Part shown: positions 10,003 through 52,261 of the stretch, one piece after another
How the letters are laid out: each line of letters opens with the position of its first letter
How positions within the stretch are numbered: position 1 is the first letter of the stretch
From: Candidatus Latescibacterota bacterium
Lineage (GTDB): Bacteria > Krumholzibacteriota > Krumholzibacteriia > WVZY01 > JAKEHA01
Reading direction: 5' to 3'
NCBI GenBank assembly: GCA_963707635.1
Contig: OY970173.1
Coordinates: 1,024,001-1,088,000, forward strand
Length of the DNA stretch: 64,000 nucleotides
The notes under the pieces: model-generated
Told to the model about the DNA's origin: nothing
Seen by the model: only the letters and a program-made list of their open reading frames with translations
Database searches by the model: none
Program-made: the position numbers and the translations under genes

Positions 10003-10014
10003 GAGACCACGTCG

Positions 10015-15107: not shown

Positions 15108-15125
15108 GTCGAAAGCAGAGATCCT

Positions 15126-15680
15126 CTACCGATAGAGCGACTTGATCTGTCCCCAGGTGGAAACCTCGGTCGAGACCGTGGTCCTCTCCACTGTGAGCCA
15201 GATCTTCCAGCTCGCGGCTGTGGGGCCGAAGTTCATGGTGACTTCGCACTTGTACTGGCCGGTGACCATGATCGGGAGCAACGGATTGACGATGCTGAAG
15301 CCGGTATCCGTGAGGTTGTCTCCAGCTTTCTTGACCTTGTGGGACAGCACGGTACCGTACGGTGGGGCTGCTTCGACCGGGCCGGACATATCGAAATATG
15401 ATTGGTCGCCGCTGTTCGCCGAATACTCCCAGTGGATGCTGATAATCGCCATGTCCGCCGGCAGGTTGGCGAAGAACGAATCCTGCGTATTCGAGGTCGG
15501 CGTCGGCCCAATCGAGCCTATCCACGTGTTGACGCCGGCATCCAGCGTGAACGTGGGCGGGTTGGACTGGTCCAGGTCGCCGTCGACGGCTTCGTTATAG
15601 TTGACTACCGCGGCGAGACTTCCGCCGGCCAGTGTCACGGATAAGAGAGCGCACAAGAGACCTGTCTTGGCAGTTTTCAT
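15126..15680 (-). CDS. Secreted protein with C-terminal STWGQIKSLYR motif
   Basis: GGAGG RBS; Sec signal MKTAKTGLLCALLSVTLAGGSLA; beta-rich body; TWG tail. Confidence 0.85.
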   Translation of the reverse strand: MKTAKTGLLCALLSVTLAGGSLAAVVNYNEAVDGDLDQSNPPTFTLDAGVNTWIGSIGPTPTSNTQDSFFANLPADMAIISIHWEYSANSGDQSYFDMSGPVEAAPPYGTVLSHKVKKAGDNLTDTGFSIVNPLLPIMVTGQYKCEVTMNFGPTAASWKIWLTVERTTVSTEVSTWGQIKSLYR

Positions 15681-21076: not shown

Positions 21077-21088
21077 GGCGTCATTATA
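21077..21088 (-). promoter_or_regulatory. Putative -10 element of a leaderless transcript
   Basis: Consensus TATAAT (21088-21083) 6 nt before ATG 21076, with no SD. Confidence 0.6.
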
Positions 21089-21187
21089 GCGGATACCGCG
21101 CGCGGCGGCCCCTGACAACGCTCGCCAGGGACCGGAATTCCGATGGTCGCAACGCACGGGGATCGCTAAACTTCAGGAAACGGCGTC

Positions 21188-29788: not shown

Positions 29789-29790
29789 CC

Positions 29791-31464: not shown

Positions 31465-31465
31465 G

Positions 31466-32448
31466 TTGCGCTACATTCTGCGGCGCCTCGGCTTCTACCT
31501 GCTCGCCGCCTGGGTGGCCGTGACGCTCAATTTCTTCCTGCCGCGACTGATGCCGGGCGATCCCGCGACGGCGCTGTTCGCCCGCTTCCGCGGCCGGCTC
31601 ACGCCCGAGGCCATGCAGGCCCTGCGCGAAACCTTCGGGCTCACCGACGCACCGCTCTTCAGCCAGTACCTCACCTATCTCGGCAACGCGCTGCGCGGGG
31701 ACCTCGGCATTTCGGTCGCGTACTTTCCCGCTCCCGTGTCCGACGTGCTGGCCCTGGGGTTCGTGTGGACCCTGTTCCTCGCCGGTACGGCGGTGATCGT
31801 GAGCTTCTGCATCGGTACCATGCTCGGCATCGTGGCCGCATGGTGGCGGCGAGGGTGGATCGACACGTGGCTTCCGTCGACGCTCGTCTTCCTCGGCGCG
31901 TTCCCGTACTTCTGGCTGGCGATGGTGCTCCTCTTCGTCTTCGGGTTCACGCTCGGCTGGTTTCCGCTCGGTCACGCGTACGGCGACGATCTCACGCCCG
32001 GCTTCAACCTCACGTTCCTGGCCGACGTGGCGCGCCACGCGATTCTGCCGGTGGGCACGGTGGTGATGGCGACGCTGGGCGGCTGGCTCCTGTCGATGCG
32101 CAACACGATGATCTCGGTGCTCGGCTCCGAGTACGTGAATCTCGCGCGCGCCAAGGGACTGCGGCCCGGGCGCGTGATGCTGCGCTACGCGGCGCGCAAC
32201 GCGCTGCTTCCCAACGTCACCGGTTTCGGCATGGCGCTCGGTTTCGTGCTCGGCGGCTCGCTGCTCACCGAGATCGTGTTCTCCTATCCGGGGCAGGGCT
32301 ACCTGCTGGTCCAGGCGGTGCGCAACCAGGACTATCCGCTCATGCAGGGCATCTTCCTGGTGATCACGCTGGCGGTGCTCGGCGCCAACTGGCTGGTGGA
32401 CCTGGTCTACCTGTGGCTCGACCCGCGCATCAGGGACTCGTCGCGTGA
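31466..32448 (+). CDS. ABC permease (OppB/DppB-like); stop shifted by an indel
   Basis: LNFFLPRLMPGDP, ARAKGL...YAARNALLP, QDYPLMQG and LDPRIR; nearest TGA at 32446-32448. Confidence 0.88.
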
Positions 32449-33386
32449 CGAAATCCGGAGCAGAGCGAGCCAGCGGCTTCGCTCTGTGGGTGCGACGCCA
32501 TCCGCCGCGACCGCAAGGCCACGATCGGCGCCGTCATCTTCGCGTGCTTCGCGCCGTCGCGCTGGTCGGGCCCTGGTGGCGGGCGACCCCGACGCGCTCG
32601 TCGGCATCCCGCTGCAGCCGCCGTCCGCGAAGCACTGGCTCGGGACCACCGGCCAGGGGCAGGACGTACTGGCGCAGCTCGTGGTGGGCACGCGCACCTC
32701 GCTGGCCATCGGCTTCGTCGTCGGGTTCGTGGTGGTGCTGGTCGGCGCGCTGGTCGGGGTGACCGCGGGCTACTTCGGCGGCCGCGTCGATGGTCTGCTC
32801 TCGCTCCTCTTCAACGTCTTCCTCGTGATACCCGGGCCTGCCGCTGGCCATCGTGATCGCGGCCTATCTGCCCGTCGGGGCCGCTCACGCTGGCGCTCGT
32901 GCTGGTGGTCACGGGCTGGGCGTGGAACGCGCGCGTGCTCCGGGCGCAGACGCTGTCGCTGCGCAAGCGGCGACTTCGTCGCCGCCGCCGTCGTGGCGGG
33001 CGAGTCGAGCTTCCGCATCGTGACGCGCGAGATCCTGCCCACCATGACGTCGCTGCTCGTCGCGCAGGTGATCGGCAGCACGGTCTATGCGATCGGCGCG
33101 CAGGTCGGGTCTCGAGTTCCTCGGACTCGGCGACGTCTCCGCGGTGACGTGGGGCACCAACCTGTACTGGGCGCAGAACGACGCGGCGCTGCTCACCGGC
33201 GCGTGGTGGACGTTCGCGCCCACCGGGCTGTGCGTGGCGCTCGTGGGTTTCGGGCTCAGTCATGCTCAACTCCGGTTTCGACGAGATCACCAATCCGCGT
33301 CTGCAGCTCGAGCGCGCGTGGCGCGCCACCTCGAAGCGACGCGGGCACGAGCCCTCGCGCTCGACGCCGGTGGTGATGGATCGTGA
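32445..33386 (+). CDS. ABC permease (OppC/DppC-like), multiple frameshifts
   Basis: PPSAKHWLGTTGQGQDV, GWAWNARVLRAQTLSLR, DFVAAAVVAGES and LEFLGLGD...WGTNLYWAQ spread over several frames. Confidence 0.8.
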
Positions 33387-34347
33387 CTGAGCCGCTGCTC
33401 TCGGTCCGCGACCTGTGCGTCGACTACATCACCGAACACGGCCCGTGCGTGCCGTCGACGGGGTGTCGCTCGACGTGCATCGCGGCGAGATTCTCGGCGT
33501 CGCCGGTGAGTCGGGCAGCGGCAAGTCGACGCTGGCGCAGGCGCTGCATGCGCATCCTGCCGCCGCCGGCGGTGATCTCCCGCGGCGCGGTGCGGTTCGA
33601 AGGCACGCGACGTGCTGACGCTCGACGAAGGGCGAACTGCGCGCGCTGCGCTGGAACGCGGATCTCGATGGTGTTCCAGAGCGCAATGGACGCGCTCAAC
33701 CCGGTGATCACCGTCGGAGAGCAGATCGTGGACACGCTGACCGCGCACCGGACGATCGGCACCGCCGCGGCGCGTTCGCGCGCGCGGCCGAGCTGCTGGA
33801 CGATGGTGGGCATCTCCGGCCGCGCGCTCGACGCGTACGCGCACCAGCTCTCGGGCGGCATGCGCCAGCGGGTGAGCATCGCGCTGGCGCTTGCGCTCGA
33901 ACCCTCGCTCGTGATCCTCGACGAGCCCACGACCGCGCTCGACGTCATCGTCGAGCGCGAGATCCTCGGAGCAGATCCGGGACCTGCAGGCCGGCTCGGC
34001 TTCGCGGTGCTGTTCATCACCCACGACCTCGCGCGCATGCTCCAGTTCTCGGATCGCGTGGCGGTGTTCTACGCCGCACGACTCGTCGAAGCGGGGCCGC
34101 CGAGCGCCTGCGCACGCGCCGCGTCATCCCTACACGCAGGGTCTGCTGCGCGCGTTTCCGACCGCTGCAGGGCGACACGGCAAGCCCGCAGCATCCCGGG
34201 CTCGCCACCGAGCCTGCAGAATCCGCCCACCGGCTGCCGCTTCCACCCGCGCTGTCCGCTCGCGCTTGCGACCGCTGCCGCGGAGCGCTCACCGGATTTC
34301 ACCCGCTGGGTCCGGCCACTTCGCCGCCTGCTTACCTCGCCGACTAG
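33383..34347 (+). CDS. ABC ATPase (OppD/DppD-like), multiple frameshifts
   Basis: GESGSGKST (ORF 33415), [24 protein letters not shown] and GCRFHPRCP; probable stop TAG at 34345-34347. Confidence 0.82.
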
Positions 34348-34368
34348 TTTCTTCCTGCGGCGCATCCG

Positions 34369-37300
34369 CTACATCGCGAAGTGCAGATAGGTCCGAACCT
34401 CCCACTCCGTGCCGTCCTGGGCCGGGTCGGTGGGGCTGGGGAGGTAGCGTGGCGAGTTCTCGTCGAGCGACCGCCAGGTGCCGCGCACGCCGATGCGGGT
34501 CTGCGGGCAGGTGTCGAACCATCGCGGCAAGCCCAGCGTTCGCGACACGTCGCCCATCAGCTGCACCGGGAACGTCAGATTGAAGTCGCGGTGGTAGTCG
34601 TACGGGCCCCAGTCGTTGAACCGCGCGGCGACCGTCGAACGCGTTCTGGCTCCAGCGCGAGCCGCGCCTCCACACCGTAGCGATAGATCAGGCGGGTGAG
34701 CGATCCGTTGCGGCGTAATCGTCCCGTTCGCTCGCCGTGCCTCCGTACGAGTTCGCCACCATGTGCACCTCCGGGTTCGGGCTGGACACGAAGCGCAGCC
34801 AGACCTCCCACAGGTCGCGCGGCGGTGGCGCACCGGGGAACGCGGAGTGGCGGTTCGCCGTCGGCCGTGAAGATGCGTCGCGTCCTGCGTGGTGGGCATG
34901 TGGCGGAACACGAATCCGAGGCAGGCGGCGAGGTGCGCGTCCTCGCGCATGTCGTTGTCCCATGCCCACATCCAGGTCGCGGGCGTCGGGTCGTAGGCGA
35001 TCATGATTTCTCGGCGCCCACCGTCTCGCGGTTCGCGCGCACCGCAAACGGATCGTCGAGCACGTTGCGCGGACGCCCGGGGGCCGGCGACGTCGCCCGG
35101 AATCGGCCCGACCATCGGCTTCTGCCACAGGAAGTTCGGTCCGACCTGGAAGTTCCCAGGTTGTACCGCGAGCCCGGTGATGAGGTTGGACTGGTTGCCG
35201 GAGCCGCTGTCCTTGAGGCGCCAGCCGGTGAAGGTGTGGGTCGCCGTCGGCCCGCCGTCGGCGACCAGGCCCATGACGGGCGCCCTGCGCGTACCAGTGC
35301 CAGCGGCCGCGCTGCACGTGAGCTTGACCTTGGCGCCAAGCGCGTCGGCAGTCGATCACCTCATCGTTGAGTCATCGTGCACTCCGCCCCGTCTCTCCGC
35401 GATCTGGAAGGTCTCGCCGACCTTGTGGGCGCCCGACCAGATGCCGCCGACGTCGACCAGGACGGTCCACGGGTGCAGCTCGAGCTCCAGGGTGACCTTG
35501 TGCGTCGTCGGCATCGGGATCGCGAACGAGCTGGTCACGTGGTCGTGCGCTGGGCGACGTCCTCCTGGTACATGGCGGTCGCGGTGAACGGCCCCGAGCC
35601 GCGCGGCGGTACTTGAGGATCATCGCGGGATTGGCGCCCCACCACAGCTCCGTGTCCGAACGCGAGTGTCAGTCCGGTCAGCGCCTTCTTGCCGCGGCAT
35701 CTCGATGCCCGACGGGCGCCTCGCCGTTGTAGATGTCGATGTTCTCTCCGTAGTAGGCGTCGCGGTAGAGGCCGAAGAAGTCTCCCTGGTAGCCCCAGTG
35801 GAGGTGGCCGGTGCGGTAGAAGCCCTCGAGCGCGAACCAGCGGTCGTCCCAGGAGACGGCCGCGTGGTAGACCTTGACGCGCTCGAGACCGTCGATGACC
35901 ACGAGCCCGGCTGTCGGACTCGACGGCCGCGGCCGCGCCGCGGTTCTCGTAGAAGATCTCGTCGATCGGGTTGCGCGGCACGTGGCCGAGGATGTTGATC
36001 GACAGCCTTCCCGGTCACCGTTGTCGGTCGGGCTGCGCCTCGACGTCGATGTAGAACGACTGCATGTTGTCGAAGCCCCGGAACGACGGGCAGCTCGACG
36101 GCAGCGGCGCTGCGCGCATCCGGCGTCGTGGTCATTCGCACGCCGCCGGTGCTGATAGGTCTCGAACTCCAGACGCACCCCCGAGACACGCACGCGCTGT
36201 AGACGCAGCTCGAACCGAGACTGGCGGCTGCTCCCGCGCGCCTCAGCTCGGCGGCGCCGCGGCGATGGATCTTGCGAAGTGGGCGCGGATCTGCCGCCGA
36301 GGTCGGTGCCGGGCGCGTACGGGTCGAGCCGGAACGCGCTGCGCAGCGCGTAGTAGGCGGCGCGCGGGTACACGTCGTAGAGACCGCGCACATCCGGCGC
36401 GCCCTTGGCGCAGATGCCCCACCACTCCTCGTTCATGTTGTTGTCGCCCTCGACGAAGTCCTCGACGTAGCCGCCGTTGGGCCACGAGGCGTTGGTGTCG
36501 TGGACTATCGAGCCGGTCTTCCTGGCCGTACTTCCACCAGCCGTCGCTCCACTGGAAGACGAAACCGCCGATGGCGTTGCCCACGCGCCCCTTGCCGGCG
36601 GACTGCTCGTAGATCTCCGCCACTGGCCGATCAGGTAGCGCGCCTGCATCGTCTGGTCCTCTCGCATCGTCCTTGGCGTTGAAGGCGTCGGCACCGAACT
36701 CGCGTGAACATCACCGGCTCGCCGAGCGTGTCCTTCACCACCTGGAAGAGGTCGCGCGACGGAGATGCCGCGATAGACGTTGCGTGCCGAGGACGTCGAG
36801 CCCCTTGCACTCCTCGGCGATCAGGTCGATGTACTGGATGTCGCCGTTGGCGATGGCCACCGGGGCGTCGGGATCGCGCGCCTTGATGGCGACGATGACC
36901 TCGCCGAACAGCGAGTACAGGTAGCGGGCTCGCGCGGCGTCGCGCTCGCCCTCGGGCAGCGCCTCGATCTCGAACGAGGTCCAGGCCAGGCCGTAGTTGT
37001 TCTCGTTGCCGAGCAGCCACATCAGCAGGCCGGGGGTGTCCCGGAACGCGTCCACCTCGCCACGACGTCGGCCTTGAGCGGCTGCGCGCAGGCGCGGGTT
37101 GGCAGTAGTCGACCGACGGCGTCCAGACACCGTCGAGCGTGAAGCCGTAGCGGCCCATCGGATGGTTGATCATGGTGTAGATGCCGTAGCGTTCGTAGAT
37201 GTAGCGCACCCAGCGCGGCGGAATGCCGGCGTATACGCGGATCGCGTTGACGCCCATGTCCTGCAGCAGCGTCATCTCGCGGTCGAGCGCGGCCTCGATG

Positions 37301-37554
37301 ACCTCGTCGGGCTGGTTCCACAGGATGAACATGTAGTTGTCGCCGATGGGGAAGTAGTCCCAGTTCATCCCGCACACCATGAAGTCCCGTCCGTCCACCT
37401 GAAGGCGATCGCCCGCGTCGTCGGACACGACGCGCACGACCGGGATGGACTGTGCCAGGGATGAGGCGGAGGCGAGGGCGAGCACCGTGCCCGCGGCGAC
37501 CGCGGCGCACATGATGGACGCCAGCGCTCTCCCGGCTCGTGCCGTCGAGATCAT
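34369..37554 (-). CDS. Large GH-A clan (GH2/GH158-like) TIM-barrel glycosidase with long C-terminal beta-strand-rich region, many frameshifts
   Basis: GAGGAGG RBS; signal peptide; GMNWDYFPIG, MGVNAIRVY, WLLGNENNY (acid/base), MFT(E)FGADAF, FQWSDGWWK and NMNEEWWGI; ends GTEWEVRTYLHFAM*. Confidence 0.8.
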
Positions 37555-37573
37555 GAAAGCCTCCTCGGGTGGT

Positions 37574-38951
37574 TCATGTCGTTCCGTCATCAAGGGCGTT
37601 GGTTCTCACGACGTCACGATACCAGAACGCACTCTGCTTCGGAATGCGCTCCTGCGTGGAGTAGTCGACCCAGTAAAGACCGAAACGCTTCGTGTAGCCC
37701 TGGGCCCATTCGAAGTTGTCCATGAGGGACCATGCGAAGTAGCCGTGCAGCGGAACGCCGTCGGCGATGGCACTCTGCGCCGCTTTCAGATGGGCCCGGA
37801 GAAACTCCACGCGACGCCCATCGTCGGACCCGGCGGGCCGCGTCGGGGGCGTCGGCATAGGCCGCGCCGTTCTCGGTGATGTAGACCTTCGGCGGCGCGT
37901 ACTCCCGGGCGATGCGCACCAGCAGCTCGTGCAGCCCCTGCGGGAACACCTCCCACCCCATGTCTGTGAGTTCGCTCGCGTCGACCGCGCCGACCTGCTG
38001 CGGAACTCCGGACGGGTCGGACCGCATCACGGCACGACTGTAGTAGTTGACGCCGAGAAAATCGAGCGGCGCGGCGATCGCCTCCAGGTCACCGGCGCGC
38101 ACGAAGGGCGGCACGGGTCCCTGCACATGGCCGCGGGCGATACGATCGGCCATGGCGTCCGCGGGGTAGCACCCGCGAAATATCGGATCCAGATACCACC
38201 GGTTGAAGAACCCGTCGAACCAGCGGGCCGCGTCGCGGTCGGCGTCGCGGGGGGAAGCGGGAAACGCGGGGCAGAGGTTGAGCGCGATGCCCACTTCCGC
38301 GCCGGGGGCGTTGCGGCGGATGACCGCACTCGCCCAGCCGTGCGAGAGCATGACGTGGTGCGCCGCGCGCAACGACTCCGCCGGGTCGCGGTGACCGGGC
38401 GCGTGCTCTCCGGTTTCGTGACCCAGGTGTGCGATGCACCAGGGCTCGTTGTGCGTCATCCAGTGGCGCACGCGGTCGCCGAGGCGGGCGGTGACGGTGT
38501 CCGCGTACTCGACGAACGCCTCGGCCGTGCGTCGCTCCGCCCAACCGCCGGCGTCCTGGAGCGCCTGGGGCAAGTCCCAGTGATACAGGGTGACGAAGGG
38601 CTGGATGCCGCGCTCCAGCAAGACGTCCACCATTGCATCGTAGAAATCGAGACCGGCGGCGTTGACGGCTCCGGTTCCCCGGGGCAGGACGCGCGGCCAG
38701 GCGATGGAGAAGCGATAGGCGCCCACCCCCAGCCACTGCATCAGGCCGATGTCATCGCGCCAGCGGTGGTAGTGATCACACGCAACGCCCGCGTTGGATC
38801 CATCGGCGATGCGGCCGGGGGTGGCGGCGAAGCGATCCCAGATGGACTCGCCACGGCCATCCTCACCAAACGCTCCCTCTATCTGGTGCGACGAGGTGGC
38901 GACGCCCCAGAGGAAACCGTCGGGGAATCTGGGGCCGGGTTTCGTGGTCAG
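37574..38951 (-). CDS. GH1 beta-glucosidase (frameshift ~37840; start codon unclear)
   Basis: FPDGFLWGVATSSHQIEG, YRFSIAWPR, TLYHWDLP, THNEP, GVNYY and YITENG; WSLMDNFEWAQGYTKRFG lies in the next frame. Confidence 0.93.
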
Positions 38952-39961
38952 CTCCCGGACGCGGACGCGTCTTCCCGGTAGAGGTGGCAACGCACGAGAC
39001 GGCCGTCGACCGAACGCGGCTCTGGATCTTCGACACGGCAGACATCCATCGCCTCCGGACAGCGTGCAACGAACGGGCATCCGCAGCCGGTGCTTTCGCC
39101 GGTGGTGAGAAGCGTGCGCGGGCCCCGGGGCGACACCGTCCCGGATCCGGCGATGGAGGCGACAAGCGCGCGGGTGTACGGGTGTGCCGGCGCGTCGACC
39201 AGCGCACGCGCCGGGCCGTCCTCGACCACGCGCCCGCGGAATAGCACCAGGATGCGGTCCGAGACGTATCGTGCCGATGCCAGGTCGTGCGTGATGAGGA
39301 GGATGGCAAGCTGGCGCTCCCGCTTCAGCTGCAGGAGCAGGTTGAGCACCTCCATGCGGATGGAGACGTCGAGCATCGACGTCGGCTCGTCCGCCACCAA
39401 CAACGCGGGGTCGACCGCAAGTGCGCGCGCGATGGCGACGCGTTGTCGCTGGCCACCGGACAACTCGTGGGGATGACGGTCGAGGAACTCGTCGGCCGGC
39501 TCGAGCCCGACCGCTCGCAGGAGTTCGCTCGCCCGGGCGCGCGCGCCCGAGGCGGTTGCCCGTCCGTGGCGCAAGAGCGGTCGCACCAGATGGTACGCGA
39601 CCGTGTGCACCGGATTGAGCGAAGCAAACGGGTCCTGGAACACCATCTGCACGCGGGCACGGTAGGCGAGCGAAGCGCGGCGCGGTTCGCGTGTGAGCAC
39701 ATCCTCGCCGTCGAGCCGAATCTCGCCTCCGTCGGGGGTTTCCAGGCGCAGGATCAGGCGGGCAATGGTGCTCTTGCCGCTCCCGGACTCGCCCACGAGC
39801 GCGACGGCCTCGCCTCGATCGATGTGAAAGGAGACGTCTCGCGCGGCGGGGACGGAGCGGCGGGTGCCGATCAGCTTCCGGGTCACAAAGCACTTGGACA
39901 GGCGGCGTACGTCGAGGAGCGGATTCGGTGTGGATGTCGTGTTGTGACGTTGCACGGGCAT
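38948..39961 (-). CDS. ABC ATPase (OppF/DppF-like)
   Basis: [47 protein letters not shown] and GCPFVARCP. Confidence 0.92.
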   Translation of the reverse strand: MPVQRHNTTSTPNPLLDVRRLSKCFVTRKLIGTRRSVPAARDVSFHIDRGEAVALVGESGSGKSTIARLILRLETPDGGEIRLDGEDVLTREPRRASLAYRARVQMVFQDPFASLNPVHTVAYHLVRPLLRHGRATASGARARASELLRAVGLEPADEFLDRHPHELSGGQRQRVAIARALAVDPALLVADEPTSMLDVSIRMEVLNLLLQLKRERQLAILLITHDLASARYVSDRILVLFRGRVVEDGPARALVDAPAHPYTRALVASIAGSGTVSPRGPRTLLTTGESTGCGCPFVARCPEAMDVCRVEDPEPRSVDGRLVRCHLYREDASASGS

Positions 39962-40179: not shown

Positions 40180-41778
40180 ATGGTGGTTTTTGCGCGGTCG
40201 ATTCTTGTCATTTCGGCGTGGGTGATCTGTGGACTGTGGCAGACCGGCGCCAATGCCCAATGCCTCCTGGCGAATCCGAGTTTTGAACTCGCCGGGACCG
40301 GCGGCGCCGTATTTTCCGGCTGGAACCAGTTTGGACCGTGTGGCTCCACCGCGGATGCAACGCACGGTTCAGTGGCCGCCCGGGTCTCGGGGCCGAACCT
40401 GGGTGGCTGGGACGTGGCCGGCTACTGGCAGTCGTTCGACACGGCGCCAGGTGAACGCTGGTTGGCCACGGTCCGCGCCTGGCATTCATCCCCGAATCCG
40501 CTGACCGGCCAGTCCCGGGCGATCGTCAACATCGAGTGGCGCAATTCGGGTGGAGGCCTGATCTCCTACGAGTCGTACACACTCGCCGACGCGACGGTCC
40601 CTCTCGACGAGATACAAGGTTTCTCCGTGCAGAGCGGCGCGGCTCCCGCTGGAAGCGCGACGGTCCGCCTGCTGCTCGCCGTCCTCCAGGGCCCGGGCGA
40701 CCCGGTGCCCGATGTGTTCTACGACGAGGCCACATTCGACAACGTCGGTCCTCCCGCGCTCGATGCGCTGCAGTGGAACGACTTCCCGGCCGGCCGCACC
40801 GTGAGTTTCAGCAGCCGCACGTGGCGCGTGAAGGGTGATGGCTACTACGGCCCGGGGCCGAACCTGTTCGACAGCGGTGCCAACGCCGTGTGGGTGGACG
40901 CCAACGGGCGCCTGCACATGACCATCCGCAAGGTTGGCAACTCGTGGTACAGCACCGAGGTCGCGCTTCAGGACGCGCTCGGTTACGGCGACTACATCTT
41001 CACGACCGTGGGACGCCTGGACGCGCTGGACCCGAAAGTGGTGCTGGGCCTGTTCCTCTGGCAATACGGACGCTGCTGGGACACCGCGTACCTATGGTGG
41101 AACCCGTACAACGAGGTCGACGTCGAGTTCAGCCGGTGGGGAAACCCCGCCAACGACGTCGCGCAGTTTGTCGCCCAACCGTACGACTATCCCGGCAACA
41201 TCCAGCGTTTTGCGGCGGCCTTCAGCAACGGGGAAGTCACCAGCCACGCGTTTCGCTGGCTGGCCGACCGCGTCGAGTATCGCAGCTGGCGCGGCGGTCC
41301 GGGCGACGAGGCGACCTCGGTGCAGATCCACGCGTGGACCTACACGGGGCCGCACATCCCGCGGCCGGAGCAGCCGCGCGCCCACATCAACCTGTGGCAG
41401 GGGGCGGGTGCGCCGTCCACCAACCAGGAAGTGGTGTTGGGCGCGTTCACATTCATCCCCGATTCACCGGTCGGTGTGGACGACGGGTTGCCTCCGCGCG
41501 GCGCGGCGTCGCTGTCCAACGCGCGGCCGAATCCATTCAATCCCTCCACGGCGATCGGCTACACGATCGCGCGTGAAGGGCATTCGGAGATCGTCGTTTA
41601 CGACGTCTCCGGCCGGCGCGTGCGCGTGCTCGTCAGTGGCGTGGTGCCGGCCGGTTACCACGAGGTGCACTGGAACGGCCGTGACGACGCCGGCCGCCGT
41701 GTCGCCTCGGGCGTGTATCTCTACCAGCTTCGCGCGGGAGACGCGGTGGAGACGAAGAAGATGGTGCTCTTGAAGTGA
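40180..41778 (+). CDS. Secreted CBM-like domain, GH16-like/ConA catalytic domain, FlgD-Ig/T9SS-like CTD
   Basis: LLANPSFE N-terminal domain; NEVDVEFSRWG (ExDxE); PNPFNP...WNGRDDAGRRVASGVY...KKMVLLK. Confidence 0.85.
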   Translation: MVVFARSILVISAWVICGLWQTGANAQCLLANPSFELAGTGGAVFSGWNQFGPCGSTADATHGSVAARVSGPNLGGWDVAGYWQSFDTAPGERWLATVRAWHSSPNPLTGQSRAIVNIEWRNSGGGLISYESYTLADATVPLDEIQGFSVQSGAAPAGSATVRLLLAVLQGPGDPVPDVFYDEATFDNVGPPALDALQWNDFPAGRTVSFSSRTWRVKGDGYYGPGPNLFDSGANAVWVDANGRLHMTIRKVGNSWYSTEVALQDALGYGDYIFTTVGRLDALDPKVVLGLFLWQYGRCWDTAYLWWNPYNEVDVEFSRWGNPANDVAQFVAQPYDYPGNIQRFAAAFSNGEVTSHAFRWLADRVEYRSWRGGPGDEATSVQIHAWTYTGPHIPRPEQPRAHINLWQGAGAPSTNQEVVLGAFTFIPDSPVGVDDGLPPRGAASLSNARPNPFNPSTAIGYTIAREGHSEIVVYDVSGRRVRVLVSGVVPAGYHEVHWNGRDDAGRRVASGVYLYQLRAGDAVETKKMVLLK

Positions 41779-41787
41779 GTGTCGTGC

Positions 41788-41825
41788 GCCTTCTGCAGCG
41801 GCGTTCCCGGCGGCTGCGAAAGGCG
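41788..41825 (+). terminator. Stem-loop after the 40180 gene (terminator or processing site)
   Basis: CGCCTTCTGCAGC...GCTGCGAAAGGCG imperfect inverted repeat; no U-tract. Confidence 0.35.
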
Positions 41826-41922
41826 GGCAGGGAGTGATGCAACGTCGGGATGATCGGGGCGTCGAGGCTCCAGGGCCCGTTCGCTCCGGATAACAACTCG
41901 AACCTCCAAAGGAGGAAGCACA

Positions 41923-42558
41923 ATGCAACTGCGCAAACAATCACTGATGGTCGCCCTGTTGGGGGCGTTCCTCATGGCCGTGGGCTCAGCCGCCCTCGCC
42001 CAGAACCAGCTGGCCAACCCCGGTTTCGAATCGGGCCTGGCGGGCTGGACATCGTTCGGCAACGCGTTCGCGGAAGGCGCGAATCCGCCCCAGTTCGTTC
42101 CCCGCACCGGCACCGGCCTGGTGTCGATGTTCGGCAACTTCTGGGGCAGCTTCAACGTGTCGGGCATCTTCCAGGAATTCGCCGCCAGCTCCGGCGAGAC
42201 GTACGACATGTCGTCGAGCGCGCGTCACTGGGCCGGCGATGCGATGGTGGGCGTCGGCGCGCCAGACGACAACTGGGTAGTGCAGAAGATCGCGTTCTTC
42301 GATGCGGGCCACAATGAAATCGGTGGCATCGATGCGACGATCCTCAACGGCACGTACGCGACGGACGCGTGGCACGACGCACCGATGATCAGCGGTGTCG
42401 CCCCGGCCGGAACGGCGTGGGTCCAGGCGCTGGTCCTGTACCTGCAGCCGATGTTTGCCGGCGGCGCCGGGCACATCGACGACGTGTACTTCGCACGCCG
42501 GGTCCCCTTGCCGACCGAGCCGTCGACCTGGGGCAAGGTGAAGGCGCTGTACCGGTAG
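41923..42558 (+). CDS. Secreted CBM4/9-like domain protein with C-terminal STWGKVKALYR motif
   Basis: AAGGAGG RBS; signal ending ALA-Q; NQLANPGFESGLAGW...IDDVYF; tail PLPTEPSTWGKVKALYR*. Confidence 0.88.
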   Translation: MQLRKQSLMVALLGAFLMAVGSAALAQNQLANPGFESGLAGWTSFGNAFAEGANPPQFVPRTGTGLVSMFGNFWGSFNVSGIFQEFAASSGETYDMSSSARHWAGDAMVGVGAPDDNWVVQKIAFFDAGHNEIGGIDATILNGTYATDAWHDAPMISGVAPAGTAWVQALVLYLQPMFAGGAGHIDDVYFARRVPLPTEPSTWGKVKALYR

Positions 42559-42721
42559 CCGCAGCCGGCGGACCACCGGGCGTCGGAGTCATGCGAGCAG
42601 AGGCGCGGGCCCTCCGCGCGCGAATGTGCGGGGGCGGTCCGCGCCTCCCTGACGGCGTCCCTACATCGCCGGGTTCAATTGTGGGCGGCCCGCGGCGCGG
42701 TGTCCGCCCGGGAGGAAGATC

Positions 42722-44143
42722 ATGAAGCACATAGAAGCGAAAATATGGGCGGCGCTGGCGTGCGCGGTGGTGCTGGCAGCCGGCTCACCGGCGTCCGCGG
42801 CGGTCAACCTGCTCGCCAACCCCGGCTTCGAAGATGCGGGCGGGTCGTACAACAGCTGGTTCACGTTTGGAACCAACGTGACGCTGTCTCTGCCGACGAA
42901 CGACAACATCATCCGGACCGGCAACGCCGCCTCGAAGATCTACGGCGGGTTCCCGAGCTGCCCGGCGCCGGTGTTCAACGTGAGCGGCTGCGGCCAGGCG
43001 TTCACGCCGACGGCGGGTGTCGAGTACGAATTCAGCGGCTACTCGTTCGTATCGAGCCTCGACACGATCCCGGGTTCGAGCACGTGCGACAAGAACCGGA
43101 TGATCGCCAAGATCGTTTTCTTTGATGCGGCGGTTGGCGGCAACGAGATTGCGTCCAACGAGGTGATCCTCGGCAACTACGCCACGCCAGCCGACCAGTG
43201 GATCCCATTCAGCATTTCGGCCCCCGCGCCGGCCGCGGCCCAGCGCGTGGAGGCTCTGCTCCTCTACCTGCAGCCGGCCTGCGACGGCGGCGCCGTCTAC
43301 ACGGACGATTTGTCCTTTTCGGAACTCCCGCCCGGGCCGGCGGGGACGAACCAGCTCGCCAATCCAAGCTTCACCGGCAATCTGACCGGCTGGACTACGT
43401 TTGGAAACGTGTACTACGACGGCCGCTCGTGGGCCCGCCGTACGCCGTCGGGGGCGGCGAAGATGTTCTCGACGTTCGACCCCGTCAACAACACCTCTGG
43501 CATGTACCAGTCGTTCGCGGCGTCACCGGGCAGCAACTGGCAGCTCGACGTCCACGTCATGATGACCTGCGTGGAAACCCCGATCCAGGGCGCCAACCAG
43601 AATCATGTCGTGGCGCGGATCGTGTTCCTCGATGCCGGGCTCAACGAGATCGGATTTGCCGATGCGGTGATCCTGGACGGCAGCGCGCCGCTGGGCACCT
43701 GGACGAAGCACACGGTCATCGCCAACAACGCGCCGGCGGGCACGACGGGTGCGCGCGCCTACATCCTGTTCGTCTCACCGCTGCAGGAAGGCGGGTCGGC
43801 GTGGATCGACGACGTGTACTTCGGCGGGCTGGTGCCGACGGGAGTCGGAGATACGCCCGCCCCGCTCGCGCTCCATCTGCAGCCGAACGTGCCCAATCCG
43901 TTTGGCCAGAGCACGCGCATCGACTTCGATCTCACGCAAACGGATGACGTGAACATCGGCGTCTACGATGTCACCGGACGCCGGGTCGCCAGCCTGGTCA
44001 GGGGGCGGCTCGGTTCGGGACCGCATTCCGTGACGTGGGACGGGCGGTCCGAAAACGGTGGGCGGGCGCCGAGCGGCGTCTACTGGTGCGTCTTGAAAAC
44101 GTCCGCGGGGCAAGCATCCCGGAGAATGCTCCTCCTGAAGTGA
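42722..44143 (+). CDS. Secreted protein with two CBM4/9-like domains and FlgD-Ig/T9SS-like CTD
   Basis: GGAGG RBS; NLLANPGFE...TDDLSF and NQLANPSF...IDDVYF repeats; NVPNPF...WDGRSENGGRAPSGVY...RRMLLLK. Confidence 0.88.
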   Translation: MKHIEAKIWAALACAVVLAAGSPASAAVNLLANPGFEDAGGSYNSWFTFGTNVTLSLPTNDNIIRTGNAASKIYGGFPSCPAPVFNVSGCGQAFTPTAGVEYEFSGYSFVSSLDTIPGSSTCDKNRMIAKIVFFDAAVGGNEIASNEVILGNYATPADQWIPFSISAPAPAAAQRVEALLLYLQPACDGGAVYTDDLSFSELPPGPAGTNQLANPSFTGNLTGWTTFGNVYYDGRSWARRTPSGAAKMFSTFDPVNNTSGMYQSFAASPGSNWQLDVHVMMTCVETPIQGANQNHVVARIVFLDAGLNEIGFADAVILDGSAPLGTWTKHTVIANNAPAGTTGARAYILFVSPLQEGGSAWIDDVYFGGLVPTGVGDTPAPLALHLQPNVPNPFGQSTRIDFDLTQTDDVNIGVYDVTGRRVASLVRGRLGSGPHSVTWDGRSENGGRAPSGVYWCVLKTSAGQASRRMLLLK

Positions 44144-46026: not shown

Positions 46027-47799
46027 ATGAACTGCATTTCTGGCACCTGGTTCCGTCGTCGCGTAGTCGTCCCGGCCTGGCCATGGGCCGCGGCGCTCGC
46101 GGTCCTCGTACCCGTGGCGACGCAGGCGGCCAGCGTCGAGTGCCGGGTGGTCGGCGTCTCCGACCCGGAGATCCTCAAGAACATCGAATCGACGCTGTCG
46201 ATCATCCGCGACCAGGATCGCGACGACCTGACGCCGGCGCGCATCGCGCAACTGCACGAGCGCGCGCCCATGGAGATTCGGCGCGCCGTCGAGCCGTTCG
46301 GGTACTACCACCCCGAGATCGAGGCGTCGCTCACCGGCGACAAGAAGGACCGATTTGACGCGCGCTACGCGATCGCGCTGGGCGAGCCCGTGCGTGTACG
46401 CAGCATCAGCGTGTCGGTGACCGGTGAGGGGAAGGACCAGTCGCCGTTTCCGCGACTCGTCGCGGAGTTTCCGCTCAAGGCCGGCGACGTTCTCGATCAG
46501 CGGTTGTACGAGCGGCGCAAGGCCACCTTCGCGAGCACCGCCGCGGACAGCGGTTACCTCGACGCGCGCTTCACCGCCAGTGTGATTCGCATCCGTCGCG
46601 AGGAAAATGTGGCCGACATCGAGATGATCCTGGACACCGGCTCCCGGTATCACTTCGGCCCGGTGACGTTCGATTCGACCTCGGTCGACGACCGCGTGAT
46701 GCGCGCCTACCTGACCTTCAAGCCGGGCGATCCGTTTCGCTACGACCGGCTCCTGGCCTTCCAGGCCAAGCTGGGCGGCGCGCCATACTTCAGCCGCGTG
46801 GAGGCGGTCGCGCAGCGGGATTCCGCCGCGGGCCACGAAGTGCCCATTCATGTGAAGCTTTCTGATCGGCGATCGCAACGCTACGAAGTCGGCGTCGGGT
46901 ACGGCACCGACACGGGCCCGCGCATCCTGCTCGGCGCGGAGTTCCGCCGGCTCAACCGCTCGGGACACCGCTACAGCGGGCGCATGAACCTCTCCCAGGT
47001 CGAGCTTTCGCTGAGCGCGGAGTACGTCATCCCATCGCTCTATCCCCACGCGCACACCTACACGATCGGGGCCCTGGTCGCCCGCATCGACCCCGACGCG
47101 TATACGACCGACCGCCTGGCCGTCGGGCCGACGCGGTCGCAACCCCGGTTCGGGTGGCTCGAATCGATCACGTTGAGCTACGAGCACGAGGACTACACGG
47201 TGGGATCCGACGACGGCATTACCAATCTCGTCATCGGCGGCCTGACGTACCGGCTGAAGCGCGCGGACGACGACATCGCACCGACGCGCGGACACCGATT
47301 CGACCTGGGTCTCCGCGGCGCCGACGAGGCGCTCCTGTCCTCGCAGAGTTTCCTTTCCTTCACGGCGTCGGCGAAGGCGGTACGCACGCTCACAAGGCGG
47401 GTCCGGCTGGTCGCGCGCGCCGACGGTGGGGTGACGACGACCCCGACCTTCCACGAGCTGCCGCCCACGATTCGCTTCTTTGCCGGCGGCGACAACAGCG
47501 TGCGTGGCTACGACTACGAGACGCTGGGGCCTCTGGACGACGGCGGCCACGTCATCGGTGGTCACCTCCTGCTCACGACGTCCGCCGAAATCCAGTTCGC
47601 GCTCAAAGGCAAGTTCGGGATCGCCGGCTTCTACGACGCGGGCAACGCCTTCGCGCATACGGGAGAAGGCATCATGGAACAGGGGGTGGGCGGAGGGTTG
47701 CGGTGGCAGTCTCCGGTGGGGCCGATTCGCCTCGACCTCGCCTTCGCGTTGCGACACGACAGCTGGAGGGTTCACTTCACAATGGGGCCCGATCTATGA
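46027..47799 (+). CDS. tamA: Autotransporter assembly factor TamA (Omp85 family)
   Basis: POTRA-like N-terminus (EPFGYY), GVGYGTDTG, RFFAGGDNSVRGY and SPVGPIRLD; ends HFTMGPDL. Confidence 0.92.
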   Translation: MNCISGTWFRRRVVVPAWPWAAALAVLVPVATQAASVECRVVGVSDPEILKNIESTLSIIRDQDRDDLTPARIAQLHERAPMEIRRAVEPFGYYHPEIEASLTGDKKDRFDARYAIALGEPVRVRSISVSVTGEGKDQSPFPRLVAEFPLKAGDVLDQRLYERRKATFASTAADSGYLDARFTASVIRIRREENVADIEMILDTGSRYHFGPVTFDSTSVDDRVMRAYLTFKPGDPFRYDRLLAFQAKLGGAPYFSRVEAVAQRDSAAGHEVPIHVKLSDRRSQRYEVGVGYGTDTGPRILLGAEFRRLNRSGHRYSGRMNLSQVELSLSAEYVIPSLYPHAHTYTIGALVARIDPDAYTTDRLAVGPTRSQPRFGWLESITLSYEHEDYTVGSDDGITNLVIGGLTYRLKRADDDIAPTRGHRFDLGLRGADEALLSSQSFLSFTASAKAVRTLTRRVRLVARADGGVTTTPTFHELPPTIRFFAGGDNSVRGYDYETLGPLDDGGHVIGGHLLLTTSAEIQFALKGKFGIAGFYDAGNAFAHTGEGIMEQGVGGGLRWQSPVGPIRLDLAFALRHDSWRVHFTMGPDL

Positions 47800-50700
47800 A
47801 GCGCGTCCGGCGGATCGTCGGCCTGGTGCTCGTCGGCGCGGGAGCTCTGATCGGGCTGGTGCTGGCCCTCGCGGCGTTCCTGCTCTTCACGACGCCGGGT
47901 GCCAGGCTGGCGCTGTCGGTGGCGAACGGGCGCCACTTGCCCGTGCGTGCAGCGACGATCGAAGGCACGCTGGCGCGCCGCTTCGTGCTGCACGACGTCG
48001 AGTTGAACGTGGGGCCGATGAAGGCCGCGCTGGATACGGTGATCGTGGCCTGGCGTCCGATGGCGCTGCGCCATCACCGAGTGGATATCGAAGAGGCGAC
48101 GATCGCCGGCGCACGCGTCCTGGTGACGGCCACTGCCGACACGACGACACGGGCCGCGCGTGGTGTTTCCAATGAAAAGCGCTGGGTCGTGACCGCAGAC
48201 CGCGTGCGCGTGCGGAATGCGACCATCGACGCGCCCGACGTGCACCTGCGCAAGGTCGACATCGCGGGCTCGGGTGGGCCGAACGGATACCGAGCCGAGG
48301 TGCACGCGTCCGGTTCGGTGTGGCGGCTCGCGGACGTGGACGCGTTTGTGCGCGCGTCCGGCGACACGAGCGCGGTCGCGGTCGACTCGCTGGACGTGCG
48401 CACGCTGGGCGGGGTCGTTCGCGGCGACGCGTTTGTGCGCTGGGAACCAGGGCTGTCGTGGCGCGGACGTCTGCACGGCGATTCGCTGCGCGTGGGCGAA
48501 TTGGCCGGCCAACCCGAGGACTGGCTGGGCGCGGTCTCGTTTCGCGCAGCCGGCACGGGGCGTCTCCACGAGGATTCCACGCGCGTCGGCATCGACGTGG
48601 AGTCGCTCGACGGCAGGTTGCGCGGCCGGCCGCTCTCCGCACGCGGGCGCATCGACGTCGATCGCGGACGCATCGAGGCTTCCGATGTACGGGTGCGCTG
48701 GGGGAAGGCGCGCGCGACGCTATCAGGCAGCATGGGGGCAATCGCAGACGTCAAACTCGATGCCACGATTCCCGCTCTGGGCGAGATCCTTCCGCGCGCG
48801 CGCGGGTCGGCCTCGGTGCACGGGACGCTCGCTGGCACTCCCGAGCGTATCGACGTCGACGTTGAAGCTCGAGGCCGCGACGTCCGCGCGGGGCGTTTCG
48901 ATATTCCTAATTTCGACGCGACGGTGGCCGCTTCCCTGTCTGCCCGCGACTACATTCCCCACGGTGCCGACTTGCGTCGCGCCGAGATTCAGGTGGGCGA
49001 GGGGACGCTGGAGGCGCGCGGAAATGCCTCGTGGCGCGATGGTCTCGAGTGGGAGGCCACGGTTACGACAGAGCGCTTTGAGACCTCCACGTTCACGCCC
49101 GCGCGATGGAACCTCTACGGGCCGGTGTCGGTTCGCGCTGCGACCGAGGGGACGAAGCGGGGTCGCCACCTGCGCGGCCGCCTGTCGATCGAGTCGCTCT
49201 CGGGGATGCTGCGCGAGCAGGCGTTGAGCGGTGCCGGGAGCGTGACGCTCAACGACCGCGAGGCCGACGTCTCGGCGCTGCGCCTCGAGTGGGGGAACAC
49301 GCGGGTGAGCGCAAACGGCCACGCCGGAGACACGCTGAATCTGGATTTCGAACTCGCCGCGCCCAACCTGGCCGCGATCGATTCCTCGTTGCACGGAGCC
49401 CTGTCGCTCCGGGGAGAGCTGCGCGGCCCGCGGCACCGGCCGGGTGTGGTGGCGGAGGTTGCCGCCGACAGCCTGCGGGTGCGCGGGTACGCCGTTCACC
49501 GGCTGGAGGGTCACGTCGACGCCGACTTCGGGTTCGCGTCCCCCGCGGACGTCAGCCTGCTTGCGCTGGGCGCGTCGCGCGGCGAGTCCATCTTTGACAC
49601 CGTGCGCGTGGACGTCTCCGGCCCGCGCGAAGATCACCGCGCAACCCTGGTGGTCGCCAAGGGCGACACACGCGCGGCGCTCGCACTGCGAGGAGCCTTG
49701 GCGGACACGTCGTGGTCGGGTTGGATCGACGACGCGAGCTTCAGCCACAGCGTGGCGGGTGAGTGGCGATCGAACCGCCCGGCGCCCGTGTTCGTATCGC
49801 GCTCGCACGTCCAGGCGGATTCGCTCCTACTCGAGTCCGGTAGCGCGCGCGTGTCCGCGCACGGGTCATGGCAACGCGGCGACACCGTGCACGCGGAGGT
49901 CGACTTGCGTGCCTTCGAGCTCTCGACTCTCCAGCGCTATCTCGCCGATGGCATGCAGATCACGGGGACGCTGGCAGGCACCGCCGCCGCGACCATCGAT
50001 CCGGCCCGAAGAATCGAAGCGCGTGTGGACCTGGTTCCCGGTCCGGGAAAGATCGTGCTGGCGGGCAAAAAGCTCGACTACGCGGGCCGCGCGACGGGAC
50101 GCGCCGACTCCGCCGGTGTGTTTGCACAGCTCGATCTCACCGTGGAAGAGACGGGCACCCGCGTGGCGACGGTCGGCGGGAAGCTCTCGATTCCGGGCTT
50201 CGTGCTGGGAAGAGACTCGCTCGGCACCCAGGCGCTCGAGGGCGCGATCGATCTGGACTGCAAGGACATCGCTCCCGTGCTGGCGGTATTCGCGCCGTCG
50301 ATCCGGGCGTGGGGTTCGCTCACCGCGCACCTTGCTCCCAAAGGCACGGCGGGGAGCTTTGGCATAACCGGGCGGGTGGCGCTCGAGCACGCGCGCTTCG
50401 ACCTTCGTTCGGGGCTGCGTCTGCGCGACACCGAGATCACGTTGGTCTCCGACGGGGAAGGGCAACTCTCACTGGACGGAGCGGTCACGTCCGGGGGCGG
50501 ACGGGTGAAACTGGAAGCCCGCTCGGCGCGCTCGGAGAAGGGGTGGTTCAAGGGCACCGTCAAGGCGAGGGGCGAGCGCTTCCAGGCCGTCAACCAGCCG
50601 GACGCGCAGGTGTTCGTGTCGCCCGATCTGGAGGTCCAGGTTGCGGAGAGGGCCGCGCTCGTCACCGGTCAGGTCCGTGTCCCGTTCGCGCGCATCGAGA

Positions 50701-51513
50701 CCGCGCAGGTGCCGGCATCGGCGGCGTCTGCGTCGAACGACGTCGTGTTCGTCGAGGACACGCTGGCGACAAAGCCGAAGTTTCAGGTGCGAACCCAGGT
50801 TCGCGTGGAACTGGGCGACAGCGTCACCTTCAGCGGCTTCGGCTTTCGCACGCGCCTGGCAGGGAGCCTGGCCGTCGACGACGAGCGCGGCCGTCCGACG
50901 CAGGGAACGGGCGAGATTCAGATCGTGGACGGAAGGTATCGCGCGTTCGGAAACGAGCTCACGATCGACCCCGGGCGCTTCGTCTTCGGCGGCGGGCCGA
51001 TCGACAATCCCGGGCTCGATATTCGCGCGTATCGCGGGCTCACGACCCAGAACGTCATGGCCGGGTCCGGGGAGATGGTCGGCATGAACCTGCGCGGCAC
51101 GCTGCGGCGGCCGGAGTTCTCGGTGTTCTCGAATCCGCCCATGTCGCAGAGCGAGATCATGTCCTACCTGGTGACGGGGCGTCCGTTGAACTCCGGCGGC
51201 GATCAGTCGGCGCTGGCCAGCGCCGCGCTGCTCATCGGCATGCAGCAGGGAGCCGGCGTCGCCAGTGGTATTGGGAAAACATTTGCGCTGGACGAGGCGT
51301 ACCTGGAAGGTGGGAGCGAAGCGAATGAAACCGCGTTCGTGGCCGGCAAATACCTCTCGCCGAAACTGTACGTGAGCTACGCGGCCGGTCTCTTTCGAGA
51401 ATACCAACACGTTTCGCGCGCGCTATTCACTCACCAACCGGTGGACACTGCAGGCGGAGAGCGGAAAGGACAGCAGCACGGACCTCATGTACTGGTTCGA
51501 GCGCGGGAAGTAG
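47796..51513 (+). CDS. tamB: Translocation/assembly module TamB (frameshift ~51393)
   Basis: ATGA overlap with tamA; N-terminal anchor; C-terminal DUF490-like GGPIDNPGLDIRA, FSNPPMSQSEIMSYL and AGKYLSPKLYVSY; continues ENTNTFRARY...YWFERGK* in a shifted frame. Confidence 0.9.
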
Positions 51514-51685
51514 GGCGGACTGCCACCGCGTCGCCTCCGAGCTTCGTGGCGGGACGTACTCTGCGGTTGCATGCGGCGTCCCGGGGCGGTAGGCTGTGCA
51601 GAAGAGGCCTCACCAACCGGTGGTCAGCGCAGTGCACCGGGGCCGCTCGGCGAGGCAGGGCAGAAACCCAGAAGGAGGAGTCTAG

Positions 51686-52261
51686 ATGGATACAAAGAAT
51701 GGTGGTCTCCTGGCGGCATGGACGCACAAGGCGAAGAAGAACGCCGGACGCCTGATCTTCTCCGGGGTCCTGGCGGTGATAGCGGGCATCCTGTGTATGA
51801 CGAGGCCGTTGATGGGCGGGCTCAGCGTCACGCTCGTCGTCGGCTTCATGCTGGTGGTCGGAGGGATCGCCCGGACCCTCCACGTCTTTAGCGCGGACTC
51901 GTTCGGTCAGGGTCTCCTGGCGCTGGTGGGCGGCGTGCTGACCCTGCTGGCCGGCGTCGTCACGATTGCCATGCCCGGTCTGGGTCTGGTGACCCTCACC
52001 ATGTTGCTCGGAATCTGGCTCCTGGCCGACGGACTGGCGGGCGCAATGCTCGCGTTCAAGGTGAGGCCAGCGTCCGGCTGGGGATGGATGCTGACGAGCG
52101 CGATACTGGCCGGATTGCTCGGCATTCTGCTGCTGGCGCACTGGCCGTTCTCCGGGTTGGTGGCGATTGGCACCCTGGTGGGAATCAACCTGCTGGTCTC
52201 GGGATTCACGATGATCTCGATCGGATCGTCGGTTCGCCGCCTGGCCTCGAAGGCAGCGTAG
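51686..52261 (+). CDS. HdeD/DUF308 family membrane protein
   Basis: AAGGAGGAG RBS; ~6 TM; GWGWML..IL..LLG.LL..WP.S....IGTLVGINLLVSG pattern. Confidence 0.85.
   Translation: MDTKNGGLLAAWTHKAKKNAGRLIFSGVLAVIAGILCMTRPLMGGLSVTLVVGFMLVVGGIARTLHVFSADSFGQGLLALVGGVLTLLAGVVTIAMPGLGLVTLTMLLGIWLLADGLAGAMLAFKVRPASGWGWMLTSAILAGLLGILLLAHWPFSGLVAIGTLVGINLLVSGFTMISIGSSVRRLASKAA

Follow-up and report, generated by a model that had tools for sequence, protein, structure and literature searches.

Three adjacent plus-strand genes in a 64,000-nucleotide stretch from a Candidatus Latescibacterota bacterium (assembly GCA_963707635.1, contig OY970173.1, positions 1,024,001 to 1,088,000; hereafter the window) encode proteins that share a carbohydrate-binding module (CBM)-like domain and have one of two types of C-terminal end. 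We refer to these genes as A, B, and C. A and C end in a type IX secretion system (T9SS) C-terminal domain (CTD), whereas B ends in a short peptide that we call the TWG tail. Here, we address what this tail might do. The features, in window positions, are as follows.

40180..41778, plus strand: gene A, 532 amino acids (aa), with a signal peptide at about aa 1-26 (by eye), a CBM-like domain, a GH16-like domain, and a T9SS type A/FlgD-like CTD
40258..40737, plus strand: A1, the CBM-like domain of A (aa 27-186) and the most divergent copy (leave-one-out hidden Markov model [HMM] E value, 8e-12)
40765..41466, plus strand: GH16-like domain of A, with an invariant E-x-D-x-E
41527..41775, plus strand: CTD of A (aa 450-532), above cut-off for TIGR04183 and PF13860
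41923..42558, plus strand: gene B, 211 aa, with a signal peptide at aa 1-26, a single CBM-like domain, and the TWG tail
42001..42501, plus strand: B1, a predicted beta-sandwich domain (aa 27-193) with a CBM16/CBM61/CBM4/CBM22 type of fold
42502..42555, plus strand: TWG tail of B (aa 194-211), predicted as a coil and a helix (203-208)
42722..44143, plus strand: gene C, 473 aa, with a signal peptide at aa 1-26 (by eye), two CBM-like domains, and a T9SS type A/FlgD-like CTD
42800..43324, plus strand: C1 domain (aa 27-201)
43346..43828, plus strand: C2 domain (aa 209-369), the nearest in-window relative of B1 (40% identity)
43892..44140, plus strand: CTD of C (aa 391-473), after a VPTGVGD linker (TIGR04183, PF13860)

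A first-pass annotation had recognized one domain motif four times (LANP[GS]F in A, in B, and at two sites in C), and our comparisons show these domains to be homologous. Each of the six BLASTP pairings was significant (26 to 40% identity; E values of 5e-10 to 3e-39), and leave-one-out HMMs regained each omitted domain (E values of 8e-12 to 3e-37). These HMMs found nothing beyond the four domains below an E value of 0.03 among 26,680 six-frame open reading frames (ORFs) of the genome. A1 is only 26 to 28% identical to the other three copies. The proposed "DD..F" ending holds for B and C, in which IDDVYF is present (starting at B185 and C362), but not for the copy in A, which ends in YDEATF.

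The four domains had no match in a Pfam scan, and one relative reached 16.8 bits for PF02018, against a cut-off of 25.9. In an AlphaFold2 model built from a 62-sequence alignment, the beta-sandwich of B1 ends at residue 193, and the predicted local distance difference test (pLDDT) score is mostly above 90. Foldseek matched the model to CBM16, CBM61, CBM4, and CBM22 domains and to CBM-like domains of tailspikes (E values of 4e-8 to 5e-8, with template modeling [TM] scores to the target of 0.69 to 0.75 for 2xom and 2zey). The domain thus shares a predicted fold with galactose-binding-domain-like beta-sandwiches (PDB 2zey, 2xom, 3p6b, and 4xup), although identity to these structures is 16 to 22% and no Pfam CBM family is matched at cut-off. 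"Glucan-binding" was the earlier description of these proteins, and the predicted fold and the neighboring genes suggest that it may be apt. The GH16-like domain of A was matched by neither Pfam nor PDB sequence searches. However, three of seven homologues of this domain, from plasmid sequences, are annotated as GH16 (32 to 36% identity). E117, D119, and E121 are invariant across 14 homologues, an E-x-D-x-E that may correspond to the GH16 catalytic motif.

The first-pass annotation had placed the TWG tail directly after IDDVYF. The junction is indeed shared, but three linker residues intervene in both proteins. In B, it reads F190-A-R-R-V194-P195-L-P-T-E-P-S-T-W203-G-K-V-K-A-L-Y-R-stop. In C, it reads F367-G-G-L-V371-P372-T-G-V-G-D, followed by the CTD. 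V-P is at an identical offset past the last strand in both (F-x-x-x-V-P). A is uninformative on the junction because its GH16-like domain separates A1 from the CTD.

The TWG tail is not confined to B. In this genome, 42 ORFs end in it, representing 26 unrelated passenger groups. (Two of the 42 are paralogues of a lipoprotein described below, and a further relative, LP1, is excluded.) Outside the search pattern, the tails conserve Y (42/42), T or V (40/42), L (39/42), and E (26/42), and the W lies 9 to 13 residues before the protein end. By a crude in-house criterion, signal peptides were found in 33 of 42 TWG proteins, 77 of 108 CTD proteins, and 713 of 2,488 other genes. A T9SS CTD terminates about 120 ORFs, including a few frame fragments. 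No ORF carries both ends, and no TWG segment was found immediately ahead of a CTD in this genome. The median ORF length is 236 aa with a TWG tail versus 634 aa with a CTD. Apart from the B-C case, sequence is shared between four TWG proteins and a single CTD protein. TWG and CTD genes were not clearly enriched near each other (9/42 within 1.5 kb versus 58/400 in the background). Across the phylum, the DNA pattern for the tail was found in 193 of 195 genomes, whereas a reversed control pattern had only two matches overall.

These data bear on whether the tail simply belongs to the CBM-like fold or reflects chance resemblance. The short helix in the B model (a coil and then residues 203 to 208, at a pLDDT of about 72) is a point in favor of the former. 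However, this segment lies beyond the last predicted strand at that modest score, and it is absent from C1, C2, A1, and 34 of the 120 B relatives listed. The diversity of the passengers and the near silence of the reversed pattern also speak against both possibilities, which we find barely credible. We rejected the tail as part of the fold on its model position, its confidence, and the tail-less relatives.

B had no match in Pfam or NCBIfam, and its tail matches none of TIGR04183, TIGR04131, PF18962, PF13860, PF07589/TIGR02595, and PF18203. Like a T9SS CTD (TIGR04183/PF18962/PF13860), the tail occupies the terminal slot of signal peptide-bearing proteins and occurs in many copies. However, a CTD is an Ig-like domain of about 80 residues (70 to 100), whereas the TWG tail has 18 residues, a predicted helix, and a predicted NTF2-fold lipoprotein partner. 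PEP-CTERM (PF07589 and TIGR02595; exosortase PF09721) and IPTL-CTERM (PF18203) are likewise short C-terminal tags on many small, diverse signal-peptide proteins. The starts of their motifs resemble that of the TWG tail (P-x-E-P-S-T-W and V-P-T-x-S-T-W-G), but the TWG tail differs in its invariant K and Y. The TWG tail has the traits of these tags: many copies, diverse signal-peptide proteins, and an exosortase in the genome. It might be an exosortase substrate, equivalent to PEP-CTERM or IPTL-CTERM minus the transmembrane helix. The exosortase is accompanied by EpsI, and by eye the PTEPSTWG of B resembles the PEPSTW of the genome's PEP-CTERM protein (G000:C1:3019684) and the VPTVSTWG of an IPTL-like tail (L092:5908). 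However, PMC1569441 defines PEP-CTERM by a transmembrane helix after the motif and then a basic cluster. The 42 TWG tails have neither (the best 12-residue hydropathy is about 0.07), and a genuine PEP-CTERM protein is already available to the exosortase. We consider this explanation very improbable.

The exosortase and EpsI genes are in an exopolysaccharide cluster (G000:C1:2034102-2037381; L023); a PorV-family gene and one encoding a CTD-like protein flank them. A single PEP-CTERM protein was found (the sole PF07589 match), encoded 1 Mb from the exosortase, at G000:C1:3019684-3020307.

The TWG tail fails the defining tests of a T9SS CTD and of PEP-CTERM/IPTL-CTERM, yet it behaves like a sorting tag. 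It is very probably a portable envelope address or docking tag. A literature search that excluded most subscription papers returned no description of the tail or of the receptor and barrel discussed below, and passages of PMC12419801 contained nothing relevant.

We also compared relatives of B and C. For B, we used the best 120 of 140 relatives, at 116 to 370 aa, with tails labeled by pattern. (The labels of P0069 and P0034 were confirmed at Pfam cut-offs; in the trees described below, P0049 and P0108 were relabeled by eye.) Their ends were TWG in 86, PEP-CTERM in 19, IPTL-CTERM-like in 4, and a planctomycete-type domain in 11, the last count pooling two labels between which P0073 had been misassigned. 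None of these short relatives had a T9SS CTD. Conversely, all of the best 120 of 268 C relatives had two domains and a CTD. The TWG tail was on no C-type protein among those 120 or in a search for longer forms, in which two C-type proteins ended in IPTL-like tails.

The longer-form search returned 38 matches, 33 of them new proteins. Eight longer B-type proteins bore a CTD. An additional module precedes the CTD in all eight, and in seven it is one that we call DIKPG. One more protein, P0270, has the same module (47 to 55% identity) followed by TWG instead of a CTD. A two-module passenger therefore occurs with either end, which supports a separable tail. The module is listed here.

P0253, P0246, P0259, P0260, P0263, P0265, P0266, and P0270; L066:4633-5901: module starting with DIKPG(S)CPN, about 125 aa, with no Pfam match, between the passenger and the sorting signal

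On a quick tree of B-type domains (with six C2 domains as the outgroup and P0270 as a long branch), the CTD label changed four times, and at least two of these changes are forced by well-supported branches. A FastTree tree, which used 25 of the 120 C proteins, put the B, C1, and C2 domains in separate groups. Therefore, the contrast between B and C in the window is old.

We also compared 36 GTDB loci, 19 of the Krumholzibacteriota/Eisenbacteria/Latescibacterota type and 17 of the planctomycete type. In all 19 nonplanctomycete loci, a gene in the B slot is followed by C. The B slot encodes a TWG tail in 18 of them and a CTD in the other (L066, syntenic). In the 17 planctomycete-type loci it encodes PEP-CTERM (eight), an IPTL-like tail (one), or another domain (eight), with neither TWG nor CTD among them. 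PEP-CTERM and IPTL-CTERM thus replace TWG on B orthologues in Planctomycetota. At the corresponding locus in Planctomycetota (L064, L067, L068, L071, L077, and L091), PEP-CTERM on the B gene is accompanied by dockerin-like ends on its neighbors (a weak PF00404 match). Planctomycetota also have two unnamed C-terminal domains of about 120 to 150 aa (P0052 type and P0056 type), which may be further sorting signals.

These comparisons uphold the tail as a separable module, because in relatives its position is taken by PEP-CTERM, IPTL-CTERM-like, or T9SS domains. The first-pass annotation had gone further and called the two ends interchangeable at the same junction. Repeated exchange among relatives was found, but it is not free, as the short B relatives without a CTD illustrate, and the commonest substitute for TWG is PEP-CTERM rather than the CTD of the proposed two-way swap. 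We rejected the idea that ends are freely exchanged, or were recently exchanged, precisely where B and C diverge; the ranked lists showed no such form (rare forms could escape them). Exchange of ends is real and repeated but rare. The tail type is largely retained among orthologues, as it should be if each end confers its own fate. It is plausible that similar, putatively glucan-binding proteins are sent to different destinations.

If B and C have different fates, the machinery for each should be considered. We use CTD types, PorV (reader), PorU (cutter), and GldLM as defined in PMC11205867. The CTDs of A and C scored 32.9 and 25.4 bits for TIGR04183 (cut-off of 23), and both passed Pfam FlgD_ig (PF13860). 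A check for T9SS core genes, suggested in the first-pass annotation, succeeded in part. The genome encodes SprA (TIGR04189, 491 bits against 200), PorU (NF033707, 529 bits against 420), and about eight PorV-family proteins (NF033709, above cut-off at several loci). One PorV-family gene adjoins porU, and its product is below cut-off for the stricter PorV model NF033710. GldK matches were below cut-off only. The TIGRFAM profiles for GldL, GldM, and GldN had no matches in this 96% complete genome, but they were silent on the positive controls too. A and C are likely to be T9SS cargo. An earlier survey (bioRxiv 10.1101/031039) reports T9SS in Bacteroidetes only.

Some PorV-family genes are beside an ExbB/TolQ-like gene and two ExbD/TolR-like genes (G000:C1:1369475-1376916, L024; and, by eye, G000:C1:231877-242087). 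Because GldL and GldM were not found, an ExbBD-type motor might energize this T9SS. The porU-porV cluster also includes a 1,102-aa barrel-like gene (G000:C1:2278590-2281898; L022:4594-7899), which had a weak SprA-profile match and no informative NCBIfam match. Another C25 gene, PorU-like but scoring under the PorU cut-off, is beside the genes for three small TWG proteins (G000:C1:2725491-2732102; L026).

With this machinery present, the TWG tail could be a minimal T9SS signal. A PorV-family paralogue would read it, or PorU would cut the V-P/T-x-V linker, and B and C would share a pore but be handled differently. SprA, PorU, and the PorV-family genes are all available, TWG and PorV occur together in 19 of 19 genomes, the linker starts at an equal offset in B and C, and TWG and CTD were exchanged on B-type domains at least twice. 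The adjacency of three TWG genes to the second PorU-like gene also fits. Nevertheless, we think this unlikely. The tail has 18 residues, is predicted to be helical, and matches none of TIGR04183, PF18962, and PF13860. Its type is kept in orthologues, as different routes predict, and a specific partner from outside the T9SS passes a complex test in models, as follows.

The candidate partner is encoded elsewhere in the genome.

G000:C1:371617-376805 (L025:3618-8833), minus strand, outside the window: a barrel-like gene, LP1, LP2, and two TWG-tailed NTF2-fold lipoprotein paralogues

The barrel-like gene encodes 656 aa and is followed by the lipoprotein (LP) genes LP1 and LP2 and by two paralogues that bear a complete TWG tail. 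The C terminus of LP1 is a TWG[FY]L[KR]G segment of its own. LP2 has no tail and ends right past W-x-x-x-x-W-x-D, the Asp of which is invariant. The LP fold is predicted to be NTF2-like, and NCBIfam had no match for the four proteins scanned from this locus. Relatives keep the barrel-LP gene order, with a barrel fragment within 1.5 kb of LP2 in 27 of 33 loci (at least three being duplicate genomes). In one of the TWG-tailed LP paralogues, a TWG segment comes after each of two domains, which could permit head-to-tail chaining. As a lead only, an atlas neighbor of the barrel at 0.94 is a BBP2_2 barrel cluster named "PEP-CTERM system associated."

We modeled B residues 182 to 211 with LP2 from a same-genus genome (G178, L030), because LP2 of the present genome has two assembly frameshifts. 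The interaction prediction score from aligned errors (ipSAE) was 0.87 (the median of three runs), compared to 0.03 for the best of three controls. The runs agreed on at least 98% of contacts, with a partner pLDDT of at least 67. Of 157 solved complexes, 116 reach the mark that we used for a complex, as do 2 of 215 mismatched pairs; these values are only roughly valid for alignments such as ours. The predicted interface was B196-211 only, despite the 14 further residues supplied. Within it, W203 and G204 contact the invariant Y130 and D172 of LP2, and K207 contacts a helix end (residues 79 to 83). In a self-tagged LP paralogue, the tail helix was modeled at a pLDDT of 90, compared to 72 in B. 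The model supports binding of the tail by LP2. Independently of the model, the TWG-like end of LP1, the tailed paralogues, and the stop of LP2 just past its invariant Asp all tie the LP family to the motif.

The distribution of LP was examined with a profile search, which superseded an earlier single-protein search that had matches in 80 of 195 genomes only. LP was matched in 121 of 128 near-complete phylum genomes. Among genomes sharing the CBM-like domain, it was found in 18 of 19 that were TWG positive and 0 of 16 that were TWG negative.

Our preferred explanation is that the TWG tail is a portable peptide, replaceable by PEP-CTERM, IPTL-CTERM-like, or T9SS ends, and that it is an address label read helix-in-groove by a predicted NTF2-fold lipoprotein encoded beside an uncharacterized outer membrane barrel, so that B would take a different envelope route from A and C. 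We give this a probability of about 0.55. Several observations count against it. The complex relies on the LP2 of a relative, and a near-identical contig contradicts one of the two frameshifts in the LP2 of this genome (the other site is uncovered). The predicted LP2 interface is no more conserved than the remainder of the protein (0.50 versus 0.50). The TWG-like end of LP1 could be the natural ligand of LP2. All 7 of the 128 near-complete genomes without an LP match bear TWG tails. PorV separates the same 35 genomes equally (19/19 versus 0/16 over the cut-off), and co-occurrence is confounded with phylum. Finally, atlas look-alikes of LP2 and the barrel include clusters that are commonest in Bacteroidota and Gemmatimonadota.

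The same complex model would also fit a docking helix that is not a transport signal. The cargo would be periplasmic, or exported in some other way, and then clipped noncovalently onto lipoprotein scaffolds. This would be analogous to the cohesin-dockerin system, in which a portable C-terminal module clips unrelated cargo to a cell-bound receptor, although a dockerin is a folded domain that binds Ca and a cohesin is a beta-sandwich, whereas here a peptide helix would meet an NTF2-like fold. Genomes have several LP paralogues, some of them self-tagged, which could chain head to tail. Furthermore, where TWG is replaced, it is usually by a membrane anchor (PEP-CTERM or IPTL-like), and TWG proteins are small, as their median ORF length indicates. 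However, for about 40 cargo genes there is a single LP2 without a tail, beside a large barrel, which would suit a transient reader better than a stoichiometric anchor. We consider a pure docking role quite unlikely.

If the tail is instead an address label read by LP2, the following sequence of events can be proposed. A, B, and C likely cross the inner membrane by Sec, as their signal peptides suggest. A and C would then leave as T9SS cargo via their type A CTDs. The tail of B, predicted to be separate from its domain and with support for this from homologues, would bind the tail-less LP2, with its T-W-G on the invariant Tyr and Asp and its invariant Lys at the LP2 helix end. LP2, its paralogue LP1, and the barrel may then pass the cargo across the outer membrane or hold it there, a role suggested by gene order.

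Next to A, B, and C is a conserved divergent operon.

38948..39961, minus strand: ABC transporter ATPase, the first gene of the divergent operon kept beside A-B-C
37614..38960, minus strand: GH1 beta-glycosidase, start approximate, a conserved neighbor (PF00232; E value, 2e-129)
34369..37593, minus strand: GH2-like gene, broken into several frames in this assembly (the intact homologue in L057 matches PF02836)

Within the DNA examined, GH1 is present in 14 and A in 10 of the 19 nonplanctomycete loci. The locus may serve beta-glucan capture, with GH16-like A cutting, B and C binding, the ABC transporter importing, and GH1 finishing. The ABC permease/ATPase and GH2-like genes are split into several frames (window positions 29119-37593), probably by long-read indel errors; in relatives, the GH2-like gene is one ORF of about 1,040 to 1,080 aa. 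In the same region, the frame that encodes an ABC solute-binding protein (PF00496) is continuous with an upstream plus-strand stretch. A promoter and terminator scan gave matches at chance level only.

Elsewhere in the window are four Ser/Thr kinase genes in tandem, with fused WD40-like/PD40 or tetratricopeptide repeats (5007-15401), and a TamA/TamB pair (46027-51755). On the minus strand, an M14 carboxypeptidase with an InhA-like MAM domain and an FlgD-like CTD (18779-21157) is probably another T9SS cargo.

We tentatively propose, at somewhat below even odds, that the barrel, LP1, and LP2 constitute an undescribed outer membrane sorting or secretion machine. It would operate alongside a T9SS that possibly lacks GldLM, in Krumholzibacteriota, Eisenbacteria, and Latescibacterota. 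Its signal would be a soluble helix that completes an NTF2-fold lipoprotein in trans, and the tag may be kin to PEP/IPTL-CTERM motifs or to the terminal helix of LP1. The B-C pair would then split sister glucan-binding domains between two routes.

About 1.6% of the called genes in this genome end in a TWG peptide that no Pfam or NCBIfam model caught. The window provides comparative evidence for a sorting tag, with one passenger domain that carries TWG, PEP-CTERM, IPTL-CTERM-like, or T9SS ends by lineage. The proposed reader is amenable to an in vitro binding test that does not require culturing the organism. If our explanation is correct, many hypothetical proteins would be annotated, and a 16-residue tag and its receptor would become available as a pair. 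It would also mean that uncultured polysaccharide degraders use a new kind of outer membrane sorting route.

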